A DNA stretch of 64,000 nt, from contig JBAZYD010000008.1 of assembly GCA_041659465.1 (NCBI GenBank), forward strand, positions 7,484 to 71,483. Reading direction: 5' to 3'. The notes under the pieces were generated by a model. That model was not told the DNA's origin. It saw only the letters and a program-made list of their open reading frames with translations, and ran no database searches. Positions 13,513-19,550 of the stretch are shown one piece after another. The position numbers and the translations under genes were made by a program. The stretch comes from Candidatus Micrarchaeia archaeon. GTDB lineage: Archaea > Micrarchaeota > Micrarchaeia > Anstonellales > Anstonellaceae. Within the stretch, counting starts at the first letter, position 1. Every line of letters begins with the position of its first letter.

Positions 13513-14460
13513 CTAAAACCGCCCCACTATCTTTTCCCTAAGCGTGTTGAGTATGTCTATCTTGGACGCTTCGGACGCGATGGAGTTGGATGCCACTATC
13601 TCCTCTGCGCCCGCAAGCTGCAGCTTGGTGTAGGCGTCGCCCAGGAACAGCCCGTGCGTGCAGCCGCAGCACACGGACGCGGCGCCGCGCGCAAGCACTG
13701 CCTTGGTGGCGCGTATCATCGTGCCGCCCCCTGCAATCATGTCGTCGAGTATCACCACGTCCCTGTCTTTTACCTCAAAATCTGCCTCAAGGGATTCCAC
13801 ATTGCGCACTGCCTGGCGCTTGTGGTTCTTGTACTCGCCGCGCTTCTTCACCATGCTCTTGCCGTCGGCCTCGTTCACCATGTATGCCGCGCCCTGGTCA
13901 GGGCTTATGAAAAGCGCGTCTGGCTTCCGCGCCTTGAAGTATGCCACCAGCTCCTCGGAAAGCGAGAAGTTCCGAAGCTGCAGGTTGCCATGGCGGAACA
14001 CGCCGGCTTTTTTGAGGAAGTGGCAGTCGAAGGTGGCAACGGACGTGAAGCCCGCGGCGGAAAGCATCTGCAGCACAATTTCGGCCGAGAGCGCCTCCCC
14101 GTGCTTCCAAATCTTGTCCTGGCGCGCGTAGGGGAGATAGGGGATGATTGCCTCTGTGCGGTTGGCGATAGCGCCCACGGTCTTGCCCATTATGAAAAGC
14201 TGGAGAAGCGAGGAGTCCTGCTTTGGGTAGCAGCGATGCAGTATCTGCACGTTCTTGCCGCGGCTTTCCTCAAGCCTGTGCATGAAGATGTGCGACTCCT
14301 TGTCGGGGAAGTTCCTAAGCTCTATGTTTGAGGAGTAGATGTATGAGCAGTTCTGGCTCACCATGAGGTGGTATGGCTTGCCGTCAGGGGGGGAAATCTC
14401 GGATGGAGCCGGCTTGAATTCGGGCGTCTGTTGTGCGCCCTCAGTTGCTTGCGCGACCAT
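13513..14460 (-). CDS. prs: ribose-phosphate pyrophosphokinase
   Basis: IIPYLPYARQDK and the VVILDDMIAGGGTMIRA PRPP-binding loop. TATA tttaaaa (14483-14489) lies 26 nt upstream. Confidence 0.9.
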   Translation of the reverse strand: MVAQATEGAQQTPEFKPAPSEISPPDGKPYHLMVSQNCSYIYSSNIELRNFPDKESHIFMHRLEESRGKNVQILHRCYPKQDSSLLQLFIMGKTVGAIANRTEAIIPYLPYARQDKIWKHGEALSAEIVLQMLSAAGFTSVATFDCHFLKKAGVFRHGNLQLRNFSLSEELVAYFKARKPDALFISPDQGAAYMVNEADGKSMVKKRGEYKNHKRQAVRNVESLEADFEVKDRDVVILDDMIAGGGTMIRATKAVLARGAASVCCGCTHGLFLGDAYTKLQLAGAEEIVASNSIASEASKIDILNTLREKIVGRF

Positions 14461-14544
14461 GATGGAAATTGGGCGAAACGGGTTTAAAAGTCTTGGTGCC
14501 GCCGCCCACTTTTTCCCCTTTTTTTCGAGGCGCGCCTTGGGCGG

Positions 14545-14586
14545 GCGCCCTTGGCTTACTTTTTCCTGAGAAGTTCATCTGCCTCG
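14545..14586. repeat. 42-bp perfect direct repeat, copy A
   Basis: gcgcccttggcttactttttcctgagaagttcatctgcctcg is identical to 15525-15566. Confidence 0.9.
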
Positions 14587-14626
14587 ACTGCGCCCGTGCG
14601 CCGGCGGAGCTATCCAAGATAAGCTG

Positions 14627-15406
14627 CTACAGCTTCACTTGTGCCATATTCTTGCCTATGTATGACTGTGGAGAGTATTTTGTAAACTTCTTCCTACTCC
14701 CGCTTATTTTCCCATTCAGCCTGAAAAACTCGGACGCAAAAGGTTCGCCTTTTTTTGACCTTGCCATCCGCAGCATGACCCCCATGAATGGGTTGATGAC
14801 GTGCACTGTTTTCTTGCCTGAAGACGTGAATATGGCAATATTCGGATCGCCTGTTTCCTCTGCATTCGCGGCAAACCCCCCGGATTCGCATGCGTCCACT
14901 GCCGCTATTTTCTGCCCTTCCAATGAACGGAACCAGGCTACAAACTTCTCGGAGTTGATGCTTGATTTCCTGAAGAAAATGGCCGACTTTCCTTTTTTCC
15001 TGCCCATTTCGCCATGGCCAGAGTATAAAAATAGCGAAACTGCGTCTTTCCCTGCGTTCGAATTGAAAAAATTGTGGATGTTTTTCCAGCTGTCGTCTGA
15101 TGTGTGGAAGATTTGGACAGCAAATCCCTTTGCCTCGAGGTTTTTTGCAATCTTCTTTGGGGCAATCTTTTTGAAGTAGAATTTATGCCCGGAAGCGAAT
15201 ATGAAAAGCGAGAAAAGCGTTGTAAACGTGCCCAATGTAATCAATGAGAAGGCGGAAAGATGTGGATTGATGATTAAACTGATGATTTGCAGGGTAAGCA
15301 CGGCTAGGCACCCCCAACCAAGGCGGCGGGCCATTTTGGATTTGGTTGCGTCTATTACTATTGCAGCCTGCTTTTTGGCAGGTGCGTTGCCAGGTATATC
15401 CTCCAC
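14627..15406 (-). CDS. membrane-anchored clan CD (legumain/caspase-like) cysteine peptidase homolog
   Basis: Two N-terminal TM helices, then LFLYSGHG (catalytic His-Gly) and, about 40 aa later, IAAVDACESGGF (legumain-like Cys). GTG start at 15406 with TATA tttaaaaa (15428-15435) 22 nt upstream. Visibly AT-richer than its neighbours. Confidence 0.6.
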   Translation of the reverse strand: MEDIPGNAPAKKQAAIVIDATKSKMARRLGWGCLAVLTLQIISLIINPHLSAFSLITLGTFTTLFSLFIFASGHKFYFKKIAPKKIAKNLEAKGFAVQIFHTSDDSWKNIHNFFNSNAGKDAVSLFLYSGHGEMGRKKGKSAIFFRKSSINSEKFVAWFRSLEGQKIAAVDACESGGFAANAEETGDPNIAIFTSSGKKTVHVINPFMGVMLRMARSKKGEPFASEFFRLNGKISGSRKKFTKYSPQSYIGKNMAQVKL

Positions 15407-15524
15407 GAGCCAATCTGCCTTGAAGTGTTTAAAAATAATGTGGTTAAAAAGTAAAAAAGTTGTTCGTTAGCGGGCGCGATGGTTTGCATTAATCCGCGCG
15501 GTTGCCGGTGTTTTGCTCGCTTGC

Positions 15525-15566
15525 GCGCCCTTGGCTTACTTTTTCCTGAGAAGTTCATCTGCCTCG
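15525..15566. repeat. 42-bp perfect direct repeat, copy B
   Basis: Identical to 14545-14586. It covers the last 9 codons, the stop and 11 nt downstream of the 53-aa GatE-tail ORF. Confidence 0.9.
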
Positions 15567-15697
15567 GCCGCATCCACCCTCAGGCGGTATTTTGCCATCA
15601 GGCGCGCGAGGTCGAGCTTTTCGCCGGAAATGAGCGCCCCAAGCGCGCTGCCCGTGATTTTTTCGAGCGAGAGCCTGAGCGCTGCATCAGCCGGCAT
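15536..15697 (-). CDS. 53-aa paralog of the GatE C-terminal tail
   Basis: Hand translation: MPADAALRLSLEKITGSALGALISGEKLDLARLMAKYRLRVDAAEADELLRKK. 33 of 49 aligned residues are identical to the last residues of GatE. It is below the track's size cutoff. Confidence 0.5.
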   Translation of the reverse strand: MPADAALRLSLEKITGSALGALISGEKLDLARLMAKYRLRVDAAEADELLRKK

Positions 15698-15712
15698 TGG
15701 GGGCAAACCTGC

Positions 15713-16231
15713 TTAAAGCGGCTCAAACTCCCCGATTTTCCTGTTCTTTCTCACTGCGTTCCACAGGAAGCATCTTCCATTCATGGCAATATAGACGCCG
15801 GGTGGAAGCGCCTGGGCGAAGGCTAGGGCGCTTCCGAAATTGAACAGCCCGTCCGAGCTTCCGAATTTGTATGGCACCATCGCGCCGGTGAGCACGATGG
15901 TCTTGTTCTTTATTTCCCTGGCCAAAACCGCGGCGGTTTCAACCATCGTGTCAGTCCCGTGGGTAATGACGATGTTTTTTGCCGGGCTGCCCTTGCAATT
16001 GTCCGAAATTATTTTCCTGTCGGCATCGGTCATGTCCAGGCTGTCAATCATCATCAGGGTGCGTATTTCCACTTCGACTTTGCACCTGCCTGTTTTCAGT
16101 ATCTCCGGCAAGTGGGTGTCCTTGAAGAACAGCCGCCCGTTCAGCTCATTATACTCTTTGTCAAAAGTTCCGCCAGTAACGAATATTGCTATCTTGCTTT
16201 CATTCATCCAATCAACCCCATGGGAAGTCAT
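15713..16231 (-). CDS. asparaginase/glutaminase N-domain-only protein
   Basis: 172 aa with VTGGTFDKEY and ITHGTDTM, the two Thr motifs of the asparaginase fold. The ATG at 16231 overlaps the gatE stop as ATGA; an alternative ATG lies at 16207. Confidence 0.7.
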   Translation of the reverse strand: MTSHGVDWMNESKIAIFVTGGTFDKEYNELNGRLFFKDTHLPEILKTGRCKVEVEIRTLMMIDSLDMTDADRKIISDNCKGSPAKNIVITHGTDTMVETAAVLAREIKNKTIVLTGAMVPYKFGSSDGLFNFGSALAFAQALPPGVYIAMNGRCFLWNAVRKNRKIGEFEPL

Positions 16232-18150
16232 TTTTTCGTCTTTTTCAGGAATTCCTGCGCTTCCGCCGCGTCCACCCTGAGGCGGTACTTTGCCATGAGC
16301 TCCGCGAGGCTGAGCTTTTCCTCATCGATAAGTGCTGCAAGCGACTTGCCGCTTATTTTGGAAAGCGAGAGCGTTTCCGTTGCAGATTTGGCGGTGGCTG
16401 CTGCGTCTTTGCACATTTCGCGCAGTATGTCCTGCATGGCGGCGCGCGCAAAAACGCCTTCCTGGCAGGCGGAAAGCGCAAAAAGCAGGCGCTCCTCGTC
16501 AAGCGCGCGCGTGTCTGAGCCTTCGCGCTTGAGGGATTGCAGCGTGTTTGTGATGGTGGAGGCGACGAGCTTGCCGTCGATTCCCGCCTCGATTGCGGTA
16601 ATATAAACCGAAAGCTCCGGAGTGAGCGCGCGGCTCTTGTGGGAGGGGGCGTGCGAGAGGAGCCCTTTTGCCGCGGCCAACTGCGCGGAAAGCTCGGCTG
16701 GGAGGGAGGAGAGGGCATCCTTTGTTTCTGCCTCGGATGCCTGGATGGCGCTTGCCGCTTTTTTTGCCGCTGCAAGCATTCCATCAGTTATCGATATGGG
16801 CTCCACGTCGGTTTCGGGATACATGCGCGCCCGGCCTGGCAGCGGGCGCATGTAGCTGGAGGTGCCATCAGGGTTGGCGCGGCGGGTTTCCTCGATTATC
16901 GTGAATCGTATTGCGCGGCTGAAAGCGGCGGAAAGCGCTGCGCGCGCCTTTTTTTCGTCGGCGACCACCAGGAGGAAGGCATCCTCGGGCTTGAGCGAAA
17001 GCGCCATGCGAAGCTCGGAAATCTCGTCGTCCGAAAAGCCGTATTTCTCCATGCTCTCGTCCGAGTGCACCAATCCGCGCACGCCGTAGGCGCGCGCATA
17101 GTCGGCAAGCTCGCTGCCGAAGCGGCGGTTGGGCGAGATTTCAGTGCCGAGAAGCCCTGCGTATTTGGGAAGGGGGATGGCAAGCACGCGCGCATGGCCC
17201 TTGAGCGCCTTTGAGACCATCTGGCACTGCGTGTTCGCAAATGCGTCCGTGATGTCGAATATGCTCTCAGGCGGCAGCTTGCCTGCGAGGCGCGATTTTG
17301 CCTCGGAAAGTACAGATAGGAGCTTTTCCTGGCGCTGCACCTCGAGGTCCACGGTAAGCGCGATTAATGAGAGGTCCTGCACGCCCTTTATTTCCACGCG
17401 CGCGCCTTGCGGGATGGAAATGTTGAGGTCCTGGCGTATGGTGCCTATGCCGCGGCTCACCATGCCGGTTTTCCGCAGCAGCGTGCCTATTGCAAGCGCG
17501 GCTTCCTGCGCCTCCTTTCCAGAGTGCAAATCAGGCGAGGTGGCGATTTCGACAAGGGGAATGCCGAGGCGGGACAGGTCGTATTGCGCATGCTCTCCCC
17601 TGCCTTGCATAGGCTGCCCGCCAGATGTGGAGCCGTCTTTCCCCTCCATTATGCCTGCGCTTTCCTCCTCTATGCAGATTGTCTGTATGGGAAGCTTGCC
17701 GGACTTGGTGCTGATGAAGCCTCCAATCCCGATGATTGCGGTGCGCTGGAAGCCCGAAGTGTTGCTGCCGTCAATCACGTTCTTGCGCATGACATGGAGC
17801 ACGTCCACTGGCTGTGAAGAAAGGAGGGAGCATATCGTGAGGGAGGAGTGCAGGGCTTCGGGCGAGAGGGAGTGCGGCGGCTCCTCGTCGGATTCCACCA
17901 GGCAGGTGGAGGGCGCGGGCGCAACATAGGAGAACGTGCGGCTGCGGCTCGCCTCCGCCGCGGAGGCTGCGTCCACCTCGCCAAGCTCGGAGCGCACGGT
18001 GTGCAGCCTGCGGGTGAAATTTTCGGATTCAGGCGCGCCTTGCGCAGGGCTGGATGGGCCTGCCGTTGCATCGCCTGCCTCAGGTGGCACGCAGGAGCAG
18101 AACAGCTTCCTGCCGGACAGGCGCTGGTGTATTTCAAGGCCGCACATCAT
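16228..18150 (-). CDS. gatE: Glu-tRNA(Gln) amidotransferase subunit E
   Basis: MMCGLEIHQRL N-terminus, a GatB/E-type core and a C-terminal tail. The track start at 18165 is TTG; ATG lies at 18150. Confidence 0.9.
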   Translation of the reverse strand: MMCGLEIHQRLSGRKLFCSCVPPEAGDATAGPSSPAQGAPESENFTRRLHTVRSELGEVDAASAAEASRSRTFSYVAPAPSTCLVESDEEPPHSLSPEALHSSLTICSLLSSQPVDVLHVMRKNVIDGSNTSGFQRTAIIGIGGFISTKSGKLPIQTICIEEESAGIMEGKDGSTSGGQPMQGRGEHAQYDLSRLGIPLVEIATSPDLHSGKEAQEAALAIGTLLRKTGMVSRGIGTIRQDLNISIPQGARVEIKGVQDLSLIALTVDLEVQRQEKLLSVLSEAKSRLAGKLPPESIFDITDAFANTQCQMVSKALKGHARVLAIPLPKYAGLLGTEISPNRRFGSELADYARAYGVRGLVHSDESMEKYGFSDDEISELRMALSLKPEDAFLLVVADEKKARAALSAAFSRAIRFTIIEETRRANPDGTSSYMRPLPGRARMYPETDVEPISITDGMLAAAKKAASAIQASEAETKDALSSLPAELSAQLAAAKGLLSHAPSHKSRALTPELSVYITAIEAGIDGKLVASTITNTLQSLKREGSDTRALDEERLLFALSACQEGVFARAAMQDILREMCKDAAATAKSATETLSLSKISGKSLAALIDEEKLSLAELMAKYRLRVDAAEAQEFLKKTKK

Positions 18151-18173
18151 AGCTACCACGTTCAAACCGCAAA

Positions 18174-19550
18174 CTAGAAGTCAAAATCCACTATTTCCGA
18201 GCGCACGGAAATCTCGCCCGCGATGTTTTTCTCCATCATTTCGCGCACGCGCGCCATTTTCTTCTCGCGCCCAAGCACCCATATCAGCTTGGCGTATGCC
18301 GCCTCCGGCGTGAAGTCGCACATGTGCCCGATTGCGCCTGCCTCGGCAAGCACCCTGCCGGACGAGTAGACGTTGAGGTTTATCCTGCCGTAAATCGTCT
18401 GCGGCGCGATTACCACCGGGATGCCGGAAGAGATGAGCGCGGAAATCTCCTTGATGACCGGCACGGCATCCTTGTTGTTGGAGGTATTCGAGGGCACGTG
18501 CCCAAGCCCGGTACCCGCAATCACCACGCCGTCGTATTTTGAGAGGGAAGCCAGCATTTCAGGCTTTATGCCAGGGTAAGAGTAGATGAGCGCGACGTTG
18601 GGGTTGAGCCTGGTGTCAAGCAAGAGCTTGCCTTGGTTCCTCGGCTGCGCGAGTTGGGAGATTCTCTCGAACTTGCCCGAAAGCGGGGACACGCGCGCTG
18701 CGGGCCTGCAGTTTATGGAACGGAAGGCGTCGCGCCGCGACGTGTGCATCTTTCGCACCTTGGCGCCGAAGTGGAGGAGGCAGGAGTCGTCCGAGAGGTT
18801 CTCATGCATGCAGATGAACACGCCGGACAAATCAGAGCCTGCGCCAAGAAGAGCAGCCTGCATGTTGAGCGCCGCATCGGACGAGCTCCTGTCCGAGCTT
18901 CGCTGGCTGCCTGTGAAAATCACAGGGCAGGGAAGGTTTTGCAGCATGAAAGAGAGCGCCGCGGACGAATAGGACATCGTGTCCGTGCCGTGCGTGATGG
19001 CCACGCCCTGCGCGCCGTCGTTTATTTCGTCGGCCGCAGCCTGCGCGATTTTCTGCCAGTGGACTGGCGTGGTGTCCTCGGATGATATTGAAAAGAGCGA
19101 TTTCGCGCGCAGCGGCTTTTTCGAGAGGTGGGCAAATGCGTCCACAAGCTCCGCAGGCGTGGTTGCCGCATCCACTGCGCCTGTGCGGTAGTCGATTCTG
19201 GAGGCTATGGTGCCTCCGCAGCCCAGTATGGTGAGGAAATCCTTCTTTGGCGCCGAAGCGGCGCGCACCTGAGCAGCCGAGGACGGGGGCTTCCCGGTTT
19301 CGACTACCTTGATTTTCTGCACGTTTTCCTTCCTTATCCCTATGTTGTAGCCTGAGGAAAGCTTGATGGAGATTGCACTTGGGTCGGAGGACGGGAGCAA
19401 TATTCCCTTGTGCTCGCCGCTTGGGCCTGAAACCAGAACCGAGTCGCCCGGCTGGGCGGCGTTTTCAGCCGCGCCTTGCCCGATGGCGCCAGGAACGGCT
19501 TGCCTGCCGGACGGCGCTGCGGGGGCTTTTTGGGATTTTGCCTTTGCCAT
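18174..19550 (-). CDS. gatD: Glu-tRNA(Gln) amidotransferase subunit D
   Basis: Asparaginase-like domain (LGCGGTIAS, ITHGTDTM). The ATG at 19550 (MAKAKSQK...) fits the shared-TATA geometry. The upstream 43 codons of the track ORF overlap the promoter. Confidence 0.9.
   Translation of the reverse strand: MAKAKSQKAPAAPSGRQAVPGAIGQGAAENAAQPGDSVLVSGPSGEHKGILLPSSDPSAISIKLSSGYNIGIRKENVQKIKVVETGKPPSSAAQVRAASAPKKDFLTILGCGGTIASRIDYRTGAVDAATTPAELVDAFAHLSKKPLRAKSLFSISSEDTTPVHWQKIAQAAADEINDGAQGVAITHGTDTMSYSSAALSFMLQNLPCPVIFTGSQRSSDRSSSDAALNMQAALLGAGSDLSGVFICMHENLSDDSCLLHFGAKVRKMHTSRRDAFRSINCRPAARVSPLSGKFERISQLAQPRNQGKLLLDTRLNPNVALIYSYPGIKPEMLASLSKYDGVVIAGTGLGHVPSNTSNNKDAVPVIKEISALISSGIPVVIAPQTIYGRINLNVYSSGRVLAEAGAIGHMCDFTPEAAYAKLIWVLGREKKMARVREMMEKNIAGEISVRSEIVDFDF

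Follow-up and report, generated by a model that had tools for sequence, protein, structure and literature searches.

We analysed a 64,000-nt stretch of DNA (the window) from contig JBAZYD010000008.1 of a groundwater Micrarchaeota metagenome-assembled genome (MAG; 1.36 Mb, 36 contigs), in which gatD and gatE, the genes of the Glu-tRNA(Gln) amidotransferase GatDE, are followed by a small asparaginase gene and by a mini-ORF that resembles the end of gatE. All coordinates are window positions, and the genes from gatD to prs are read on the minus strand. A sequence-only reading of this DNA had described a 172-aa ORF whose ATG overlaps the TGA of gatE as ATGA and, 15 nt after it, a 53-aa ORF with 33 of 49 residues identical to the GatE tail, and had taken the two for new components of GatDE. 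Both ORFs were found as described; a third copy of the gatE end, in a 42-nt repeat that brackets a caspase-like gene, had been missed. In the direction of reading, the features of the locus are:

18174-19550, minus strand: gatD, the asparaginase-like glutaminase subunit (Pfam GatD_N, Asparaginase and Asparaginase_C), starting with the ATG at 19550
16228-18150, minus strand: gatE (Pfam GatB_N and GAD), with 77-84% amino acid identity to gatE of genus relatives
about 16228-16400, minus strand: gatE tail copy T1, the last ~57 codons, which keeps LMAKYRLRVDAAEA
15706-16250, minus strand: putative inserted block, comprising the last ~7 gatE codons with the stop, the asparaginase gene and the 7 nt that follow the asparaginase stop, delimited by a jump in identity to a sister lineage
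15713-16231, minus strand: 172-aa ORF from the ATG at 16231, the longer frame of the asparaginase gene
15713-16207, minus strand: predicted short-chain L-asparaginase gene, 164 aa from Met9 (PF00710 only; match to RrA, the enzyme of Rhodospirillum rubrum)
15536-15706, minus strand: tail copy T2, the mini-ORF, a putative displaced gatE 3' end with its own stop, recognised by its similarity to T1
15525-15566, no strand assigned: direct-repeat copy B, in which the final 10 T2 codons and the stop are followed by 11 nt, an exact 42-nt repeat of 14545-14586
14587-15524, minus strand: second inserted single-gene segment, with the caspase-like ORF (GC 0.47)
14627-15406, minus strand: ORF of 259 aa for a membrane-anchored caspase-like (clan CD) peptidase (weak Peptidase_C14 Pfam match)
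14545-14586, no strand assigned: direct-repeat copy A, which is tail copy T3, an orphan gatE end of 42 nt that abuts the native spacer
14461-14544, minus strand: native gatE-prs spacer of 84 nt with the prs TATA box (TTTTAAA), aligning with the empty-site spacer of the related genome G020
13513-14460, minus strand: prs, ribose-phosphate pyrophosphokinase (Pfam; 89-95% amino acid identity and adjacency to gatE in relatives)

In the run that is probably the source, one Logan contig matches 15537-17119 with 0 mismatches and takes in the mini-ORF, the 172-aa ORF and a portion of gatE, and mismatch-free contigs from an independent groundwater run of 2018, which belongs to another study, cross 15569-15719 and 15349-15567; sequencing depth is alike along the region. 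The k=31 contigs break at both 42-nt repeats, and this confirmation covers the stretches outside the links that span the repeats. The junctions from gatE through the asparaginase gene to T2, and from T2 to the caspase side, are physically real and were seen in two independent samples.

The 172-aa ORF shows a single Pfam domain, the N-terminal domain of asparaginases (PF00710, E 1e-27), lacks the C-terminal domain and contains both the TGGT and the HGTDT motif, which agrees with what had been read from the sequence. Among solved structures, the top match of its protein was PDB 8UOO with its variants (RrA; E 7e-38, residues 10-172), and the next-best matches were long asparaginases with E values of 1e-14 or worse. 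RrA was presented in 2024 as the prototype of the short-chain L-asparaginases (Protein Sci; PMC10949315), cytoplasmic homotetramers of 160-185 aa that hydrolyse L-Asn without a C-terminal domain; its catalytic residues are Thr16, Tyr21, Thr87, Asp88 and Lys158, Lys19 is family-specific, and the active site is completed by Tyr21 and Asn26, which a different protomer contributes (PMC10949315). The small asparaginase of the window is 48% identical to RrA over 163 residues, i.e., over the full length, and RrA T16, K19, Y21, T87, D88 and K158 correspond to T14, K17, Y19, T85, D86 and K154 (164-aa numbering), all six being identical. The position of RrA Asn26 is taken by Gly, and an Asn sits one position earlier. 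Because the match to RrA is full-length and the catalytic residues as well as the family-specific Lys are kept, the 172-aa ORF is best classified, from its sequence, as a member of the known RrA-type family and not as a new amidase module, and its product would act as an L-asparaginase like RrA. It is no recent copy of the GatD asparaginase domain, as had also been noted before, the identity to GatD being only 31-36%.

More than 8000 homologues of the small asparaginase, mostly 162-166 aa long, are present in a large protein database, and they include named Micrarchaeota proteins and, at ~75% identity, bacterial proteins of the Bryobacteraceae. In bacteria, short-chain asparaginases occur in many phyla but with a patchy distribution, from which frequent horizontal transfer has been suggested (PMC10949315). 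Two of the named Bryobacteraceae (Acidobacteria) proteins, P0031 and P0115, are ~75% identical to the short asparaginase of Micrarchaeota. The similarities suggest that the short asparaginase has been transferred between bacteria and DPANN archaea.

Among related genomes, gatDE is present in 41 of 41 and a homologue of the asparaginase in about a dozen, and outside the genome studied here no homologue was located within 6 kb of gatD or gatE in these 41 genomes. The closest homologues in the database (77-88% identity) adjoin cupredoxin, PALP or unknown genes. In a metagenome scan, a degenerate pattern in which the conserved tail motif of gatE is followed by the N-terminus of the asparaginase matched one contig from a JGI metagenome; the same junction pattern had no match in species genomes. 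The sister lineage recognised in this way is also present in ENA and Logan assemblies and is known from metagenome contigs only. Its genes are arranged in the order drg, gatD, gatE, asparaginase, a 119-nt spacer, prs and a HerA-like gene, which is the order found here. Its 460-aa GatD aligns to 19550-18177 of the window, and its asparaginase is 92-93% identical to that of the window; neither the mini-ORF nor the caspase-like gene is present in the sister lineage. A check of synteny, which the sequence-only reading had proposed, thus gave a divided result: the homologues of relatives never adjoin gatDE, but one sister lineage shares gatD-gatE-asparaginase-prs. Co-occurrence with GatDE and conserved adjacency to it, which would mark a GatDE component, were not found, a single sister lineage sharing the arrangement.

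In the relative G003 (L013 5899-7456), a homologue with 76% identity has its own TATA box and lies downstream of copper ATPase and cupredoxin genes, between two diverged full-length paralogues of an unknown gene of ~155 aa (MHYK.AAFFHL...YLKREYKL.); cupredoxin is the upstream neighbour also in three metagenome contigs. No tail duplicates were found around the other asparaginase homologues, the paralogue pair of G003 being the sole flanking duplicate.

The start of the asparaginase is probably not the ATG that overlaps the gatE stop. The database call for the same gene gives 164 aa with the start at the second Met (16207), all close homologues (162-166 aa) start at this Met, and the DNA similarity to the closest homologues begins ~11-15 nt upstream of the ATG at 16207. 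In the sister lineage, a TTG start is found at the same place and an in-frame TGA directly upstream of it, so the overlap start is blocked there. Met9 is therefore the probable true start, and the ATGA overlap is probably incidental. A run of A differs by 1 nt between the two lineages (16228-16250 in the window, 9975-10000 in L049), which shifts the stop of gatE: the window gatE ends in ...KKTKK, and the sister gatE runs eight codons further into the inserted block and ends in ...KKAKNNVPRG. Owing to this difference in length, the ATGA overlap is specific to the genome studied here. Between gatE and Met9 there are 20 nt in the window, and in the sister lineage the gatE stop and the corresponding start are 4 nt apart.

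The closest homologues in other contexts each have a TATA-like box ~40 nt upstream of the start; no such box precedes the asparaginase of the window, where the corresponding sequence is the end of gatE. A purine-rich stretch, GGGGTTGAT, is situated just upstream of the Met9 start and is kept in the homologues. Comparison of the window with the sister lineage showed that the asparaginase is under purifying selection (dN 0.03, dS 0.42, dN/dS ~0.07). The gene therefore belongs, without a promoter of its own, to the gatDE gene string in two species-level lineages; read-through from gatDE would transcribe it, and translation would begin at Met9. A peat metatranscriptome, the one run sharing words with the stretch, contained just fragments of asparaginase genes of other organisms.

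Nucleotide identity between the window and the sister lineage rises from 0.62-0.69 in the gatE tail to ~0.90 between ~16250 and 15706, beyond which no similarity is left. This block has the lowest dS (0.42 for the asparaginase gene, 0.18 for its first 60 codons); for 16 other genes compared between the two, dS was 0.64-1.06 for well-conserved orthologues and 1.26-1.46 for two divergent small ORFs. The GC content is 0.51 in the asparaginase gene and 0.62 in the gatE body, and the genes on either flank show equal distances to the sister lineage. As the block looks younger than the split of the genomes, it was probably exchanged between lineages.

In this genus, prs is the conserved right-hand neighbour of gatE, and the spacer between them is a variable insertion spot, because it is empty in three relatives (G003, G011 and G020, where gatE is followed directly by prs after 50-110 nt) and is occupied by different cargo in another three. 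In none of the 13 relatives examined, those with inserts (G017, G021 and G022) included, was the gatE end found again downstream of gatE. Of the three inserts, that of G017 (L025 4331-5949) measures 1.7 kb and comprises an unknown 282-aa gene on the reverse strand and an MntA/HepT toxin-antitoxin pair (NTP_transf_2 and HepT-like); G021 (L028) and G022 (L027) have 0.7 kb and 0.43 kb of other sequence in the spacer. The gatE tail is far more diverged than the body in every species pair (nucleotide identity 0.56-0.73 vs. 0.75-0.82), with synonymous sites of the tails being saturated, and recombination may exchange tails beside the variable spot more frequently than it does the remainder of gatE. 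Base composition was rejected as a marker of the native tail, since tails are GC-poorer than the gatE bodies in all species.

The similarity of the mini-ORF to the gatE tail, the second element of the earlier reading, is far beyond chance. About 33 of 49-50 residues are identical, including LMAKYRLRVDAAEA, and T2 is 73% identical to T1 across 44 aa (tblastn E 2e-14), the DNA being 71% identical across 136 nt (blastn E 7e-13). The mini-ORF extends to 15536 and has 53 aa when read from the ATG at 15697, which follows the asparaginase TAA after 15 nt, or 56 aa from a TTG at 15706. It resembles gatE tails from near 15698, just past 15706, where the similarity to the sister lineage stops, up to and including its own stop and the next 11 nt. 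T1 and T2 differ in 29-37% of their nucleotides, with a saturated dS of 1.3 and a dN/dS of 0.30, a value bracketed by those between tails of different species (0.13-0.54). T2 is nearer to the tails of relatives (80-84% at best) than T1 (74-75%), and in a tree of tails T1 and T2 are not sisters, although support is weak and the sequences are short. Because T2 displays a species-like divergence under purifying selection, it must have evolved inside a working gatE for almost its whole history, and its orphaning must be recent.

Neither the sister lineage nor any of the 13 relatives has the mini-ORF, and a search of a large protein-cluster database for a free-standing GatE tail of 31-98 aa returned only the ORF itself and a gatE fragment, with the caveat that gene finders often skip small ORFs. 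If the mini-ORF were a long-standing selected protein, relatives should share it, which disfavours this interpretation. It has no clear ribosome-binding site, just AGGT 11 nt upstream, and would encode only part of the GatE tail domain. Most likely, judging from these features, it is a non-functional leftover of a gatE end. Two candidates for further free tails were rejected: a 69-aa 'protein' of the 600-nt contig ena:ERZ27250208:k141_112457 is a truncated-gene artefact, the contig (L053 1-70) beginning with an Illumina adapter fused to a gatE 3' end, and a decayed T2 remnant in the spacer of the sister lineage was discarded, 24-50 of 500 shuffles reaching its local alignment scores. The mini-ORF is in the frame of the asparaginase (15706-15715), from which it is separated by only the TAA and two codons, and read-through would give a fusion protein; we take the shared frame to be a matter of chance.

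The third copy of the gatE end is the shortest. The 42 nt at 14545-14586, consisting of a gatE end plus 11 nt, are identical to 15525-15566 and have no further copy in the genome, and the spacer joined to T3 matches the one between gatE and prs in G020. Between the exact repeats lies a 938-nt low-GC segment with one orphan caspase-like gene (YSGHG and DACESG), for whose protein neither 40 relatives nor the large protein database yielded a homologue. Direct repeats containing the gatE 3' end flank both inserts, an exact pair of 42 nt in one case and the T1/T2 pair of ~175 nt with 63-71% identity in the other. No integrase or recombinase gene is present between gatE and prs, and two matches to tyrosine recombinases (PF00589) were found in the genome, on other contigs.

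We consider it probable that an accessory enzyme gene was captured into the gatDE transcript and that the mini-ORF is a scar of recombination. According to this proposal, a horizontally mobile asparaginase gene of the RrA family would have been joined to the very end of gatE in a small clade comprising the window genome and its sister lineage, arriving without a promoter and with a leader of ~15 nt, and its product, read through from gatDE, would work as an ordinary stand-alone homotetramer. One lineage would have had the arrangement gatE-asparaginase-prs, and a second one gatE (with the tail T2), the caspase-like insert and prs. The two would have recombined through a homologous anchor at one end, and at the other end an illegitimate joint would have formed 7-14 nt past the asparaginase stop, so that gatE stayed whole and the last ~56 codons of the other allele were stranded as the mini-ORF. 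T2 might be the former tail of the lineage itself or that of a related donor, and in a further, very recent event the caspase-like gene would have been placed between exact 42-nt copies of the T2 end.

Several points weigh against this explanation. Unlike the adjoining asparaginase block, the attached tail T1 lacks close similarity to its counterpart in the sister lineage, and therefore either more than one exchange took place or the tail changes fast. A lineage bearing T2 was not found, the best of 23 genus genomes reaching 84% over 105 nt. The mini-ORF is intact, with an ATG, a perfect conserved motif and neither frameshift nor internal stop, so that a selected small protein may fit the sequence equally well. 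The asparaginase gene has been kept promoterless behind gatE under purifying selection in two lineages, which leaves a slim chance of a functional tie to GatDE. Finally, flanks and composition do not decide which part was resident and which was incoming. The mini-ORF is a scar under a homologous as well as under a site-specific route.

Such a site-specific route, which we regard as unlikely, would be an accretion in which the end of gatE serves as an attachment site and elements without an integrase were added one after the other by a recombinase encoded elsewhere. Each element would have brought or duplicated a gatE end, and the mini-ORF would be an internal remnant bearing an attachment site; the pattern would be like that of cis-mobilisable elements lying in tandem at a protein gene's 3' end. 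This would account for the exact 42-nt direct repeats, which include the gatE stop and bracket the caspase-like segment, and for three gatE-end copies in one orientation that separate single-gene inserts, and the two tyrosine-recombinase genes elsewhere in the genome could supply the enzyme. However, no integrase is present in or beside the inserts, the inserts of G017, G021 and G022 occupy the same spot without gatE-end repeats, and the sister lineage has the asparaginase block without any repeat; in addition, T1 and T2 are only 63-71% identical, and neither the repeat nor either insert has another copy in the genome.

A functional extension of GatDE, in which Asn-derived ammonia comes from the asparaginase, or the latter docks on GatE, and an expressed free tail binds tRNA or GatE, is improbable. 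It draws on the tight position of a promoterless gene behind gatE in two lineages, on the intact catalytic residues and on the mini-ORF being intact with its conserved tail motif, but the family consists of self-sufficient homotetrameric enzymes (PMC10949315), most relatives possess gatDE but not the asparaginase, the homologues that do exist in relatives lying elsewhere, and no mini-ORF occurs in the sister lineage or in any other genome examined, its 53 aa presumably corresponding to only part of the GatE tail domain. The proposal that an amidase and a GatE tail are linked to GatDE thus holds for the promoterless asparaginase in the gatDE unit, but not for the tail, which we regard as a scar. 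As new GatDE components, neither part found support: the asparaginase belongs to a known stand-alone family with homologues in unrelated contexts, and the mini-protein is conserved neither in the sister lineage nor in the 13 relatives and has no free-standing homologue. A mini-ORF that is not conserved and homologues of the 172-aa protein in unrelated contexts were the two outcomes that the sequence-only reading had itself named as speaking against it. We give very little credence to the combined case of a captured asparaginase that is a working partner of GatDE and a spare tail that is translated and binds tRNA or GatE. If it were true, ammonia derived from Asn and fed to GatE would be a second amide donor for Gln-tRNA synthesis in archaea with reduced genomes, the spare tail would be translated alone or by read-through of the in-frame TAA, and the locus would point to an unknown accessory route of amide supply for the archaeal tRNA-dependent amidotransferase.

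An in-place tandem duplication of the gatE end upon insertion, followed by divergence, would explain that the copies are direct repeats flanking the insert, but we hold it to be highly improbable, as the dS of 1.3 between T1 and T2 is saturated and the duplicate is absent in the genus relatives and in the less diverged sister lineage (dS ~0.85); moreover, the relic T2 has changed as if under purifying selection and is less diverged from relatives than the working T1. An assembly chimera of two co-occurring strains is barely credible: the genome is a MAG, the 42-nt repeats break the k=31 contigs and the links across them have no independent confirmation, but a single contig without mismatches carries gatE, asparaginase and T2, an unrelated second sample shows the T2/asparaginase and T2/caspase-side junctions again, depths are alike, and the joint at 15706 has no shared sequence that could mislead an assembler.

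Capture into the gatDE transcript, the explanation that we prefer, would make the locus a clean example of a promoterless foreign gene plugged into an essential operon, and the asparaginase adds an archaeal (DPANN) member to a recently defined family. It would also mean that recombination at a variable spot can leave behind an intact-looking orphan gene end that may be called as a small protein, and this suggests caution when a mini-ORF that duplicates the end of its neighbour is annotated.

Integrating elements whose target is the 3' end of a protein gene leave duplicated gene ends, for example in Streptococcus thermophilus, where ICESt1 and CIMEs form arrays at fda. The locus described here is similar to such ICE/CIME-type integration in that foreign genes are located at the end of a housekeeping gene whose frame stays complete, a copy of the gene end is found beyond the insert, and several inserts are separated by copies. 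It differs in that the inserts are single genes of 0.5-0.9 kb without a mobility gene, and in that only one repeat pair (42 nt) is exact, the other being as diverged as between species. Homology-facilitated illegitimate recombination is the other nearest known process, and we put it forward as a proposal for the mechanism at this locus. With GatD, the small asparaginase has in common the fold family of the asparaginase N-domain and the operon, but it has neither GatD_N nor a C-terminal domain, is no copy of GatD and has a different distribution. Compared with RrA, the window protein, a predicted asparaginase and predicted tetramer, has its counterpart of Asn26 one residue out of register; it is from a DPANN archaeon (Micrarchaeota), whereas the published survey covers bacteria and mentions eukaryotes (PMC10949315), and its gene has no promoter of its own and would ride on the gatDE transcript. 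The two enzymes are alike in what defines the family, with 48% identity over the full length, the catalytic set of Thr, Tyr, Thr-Asp and Lys, and the family-specific Lys19.

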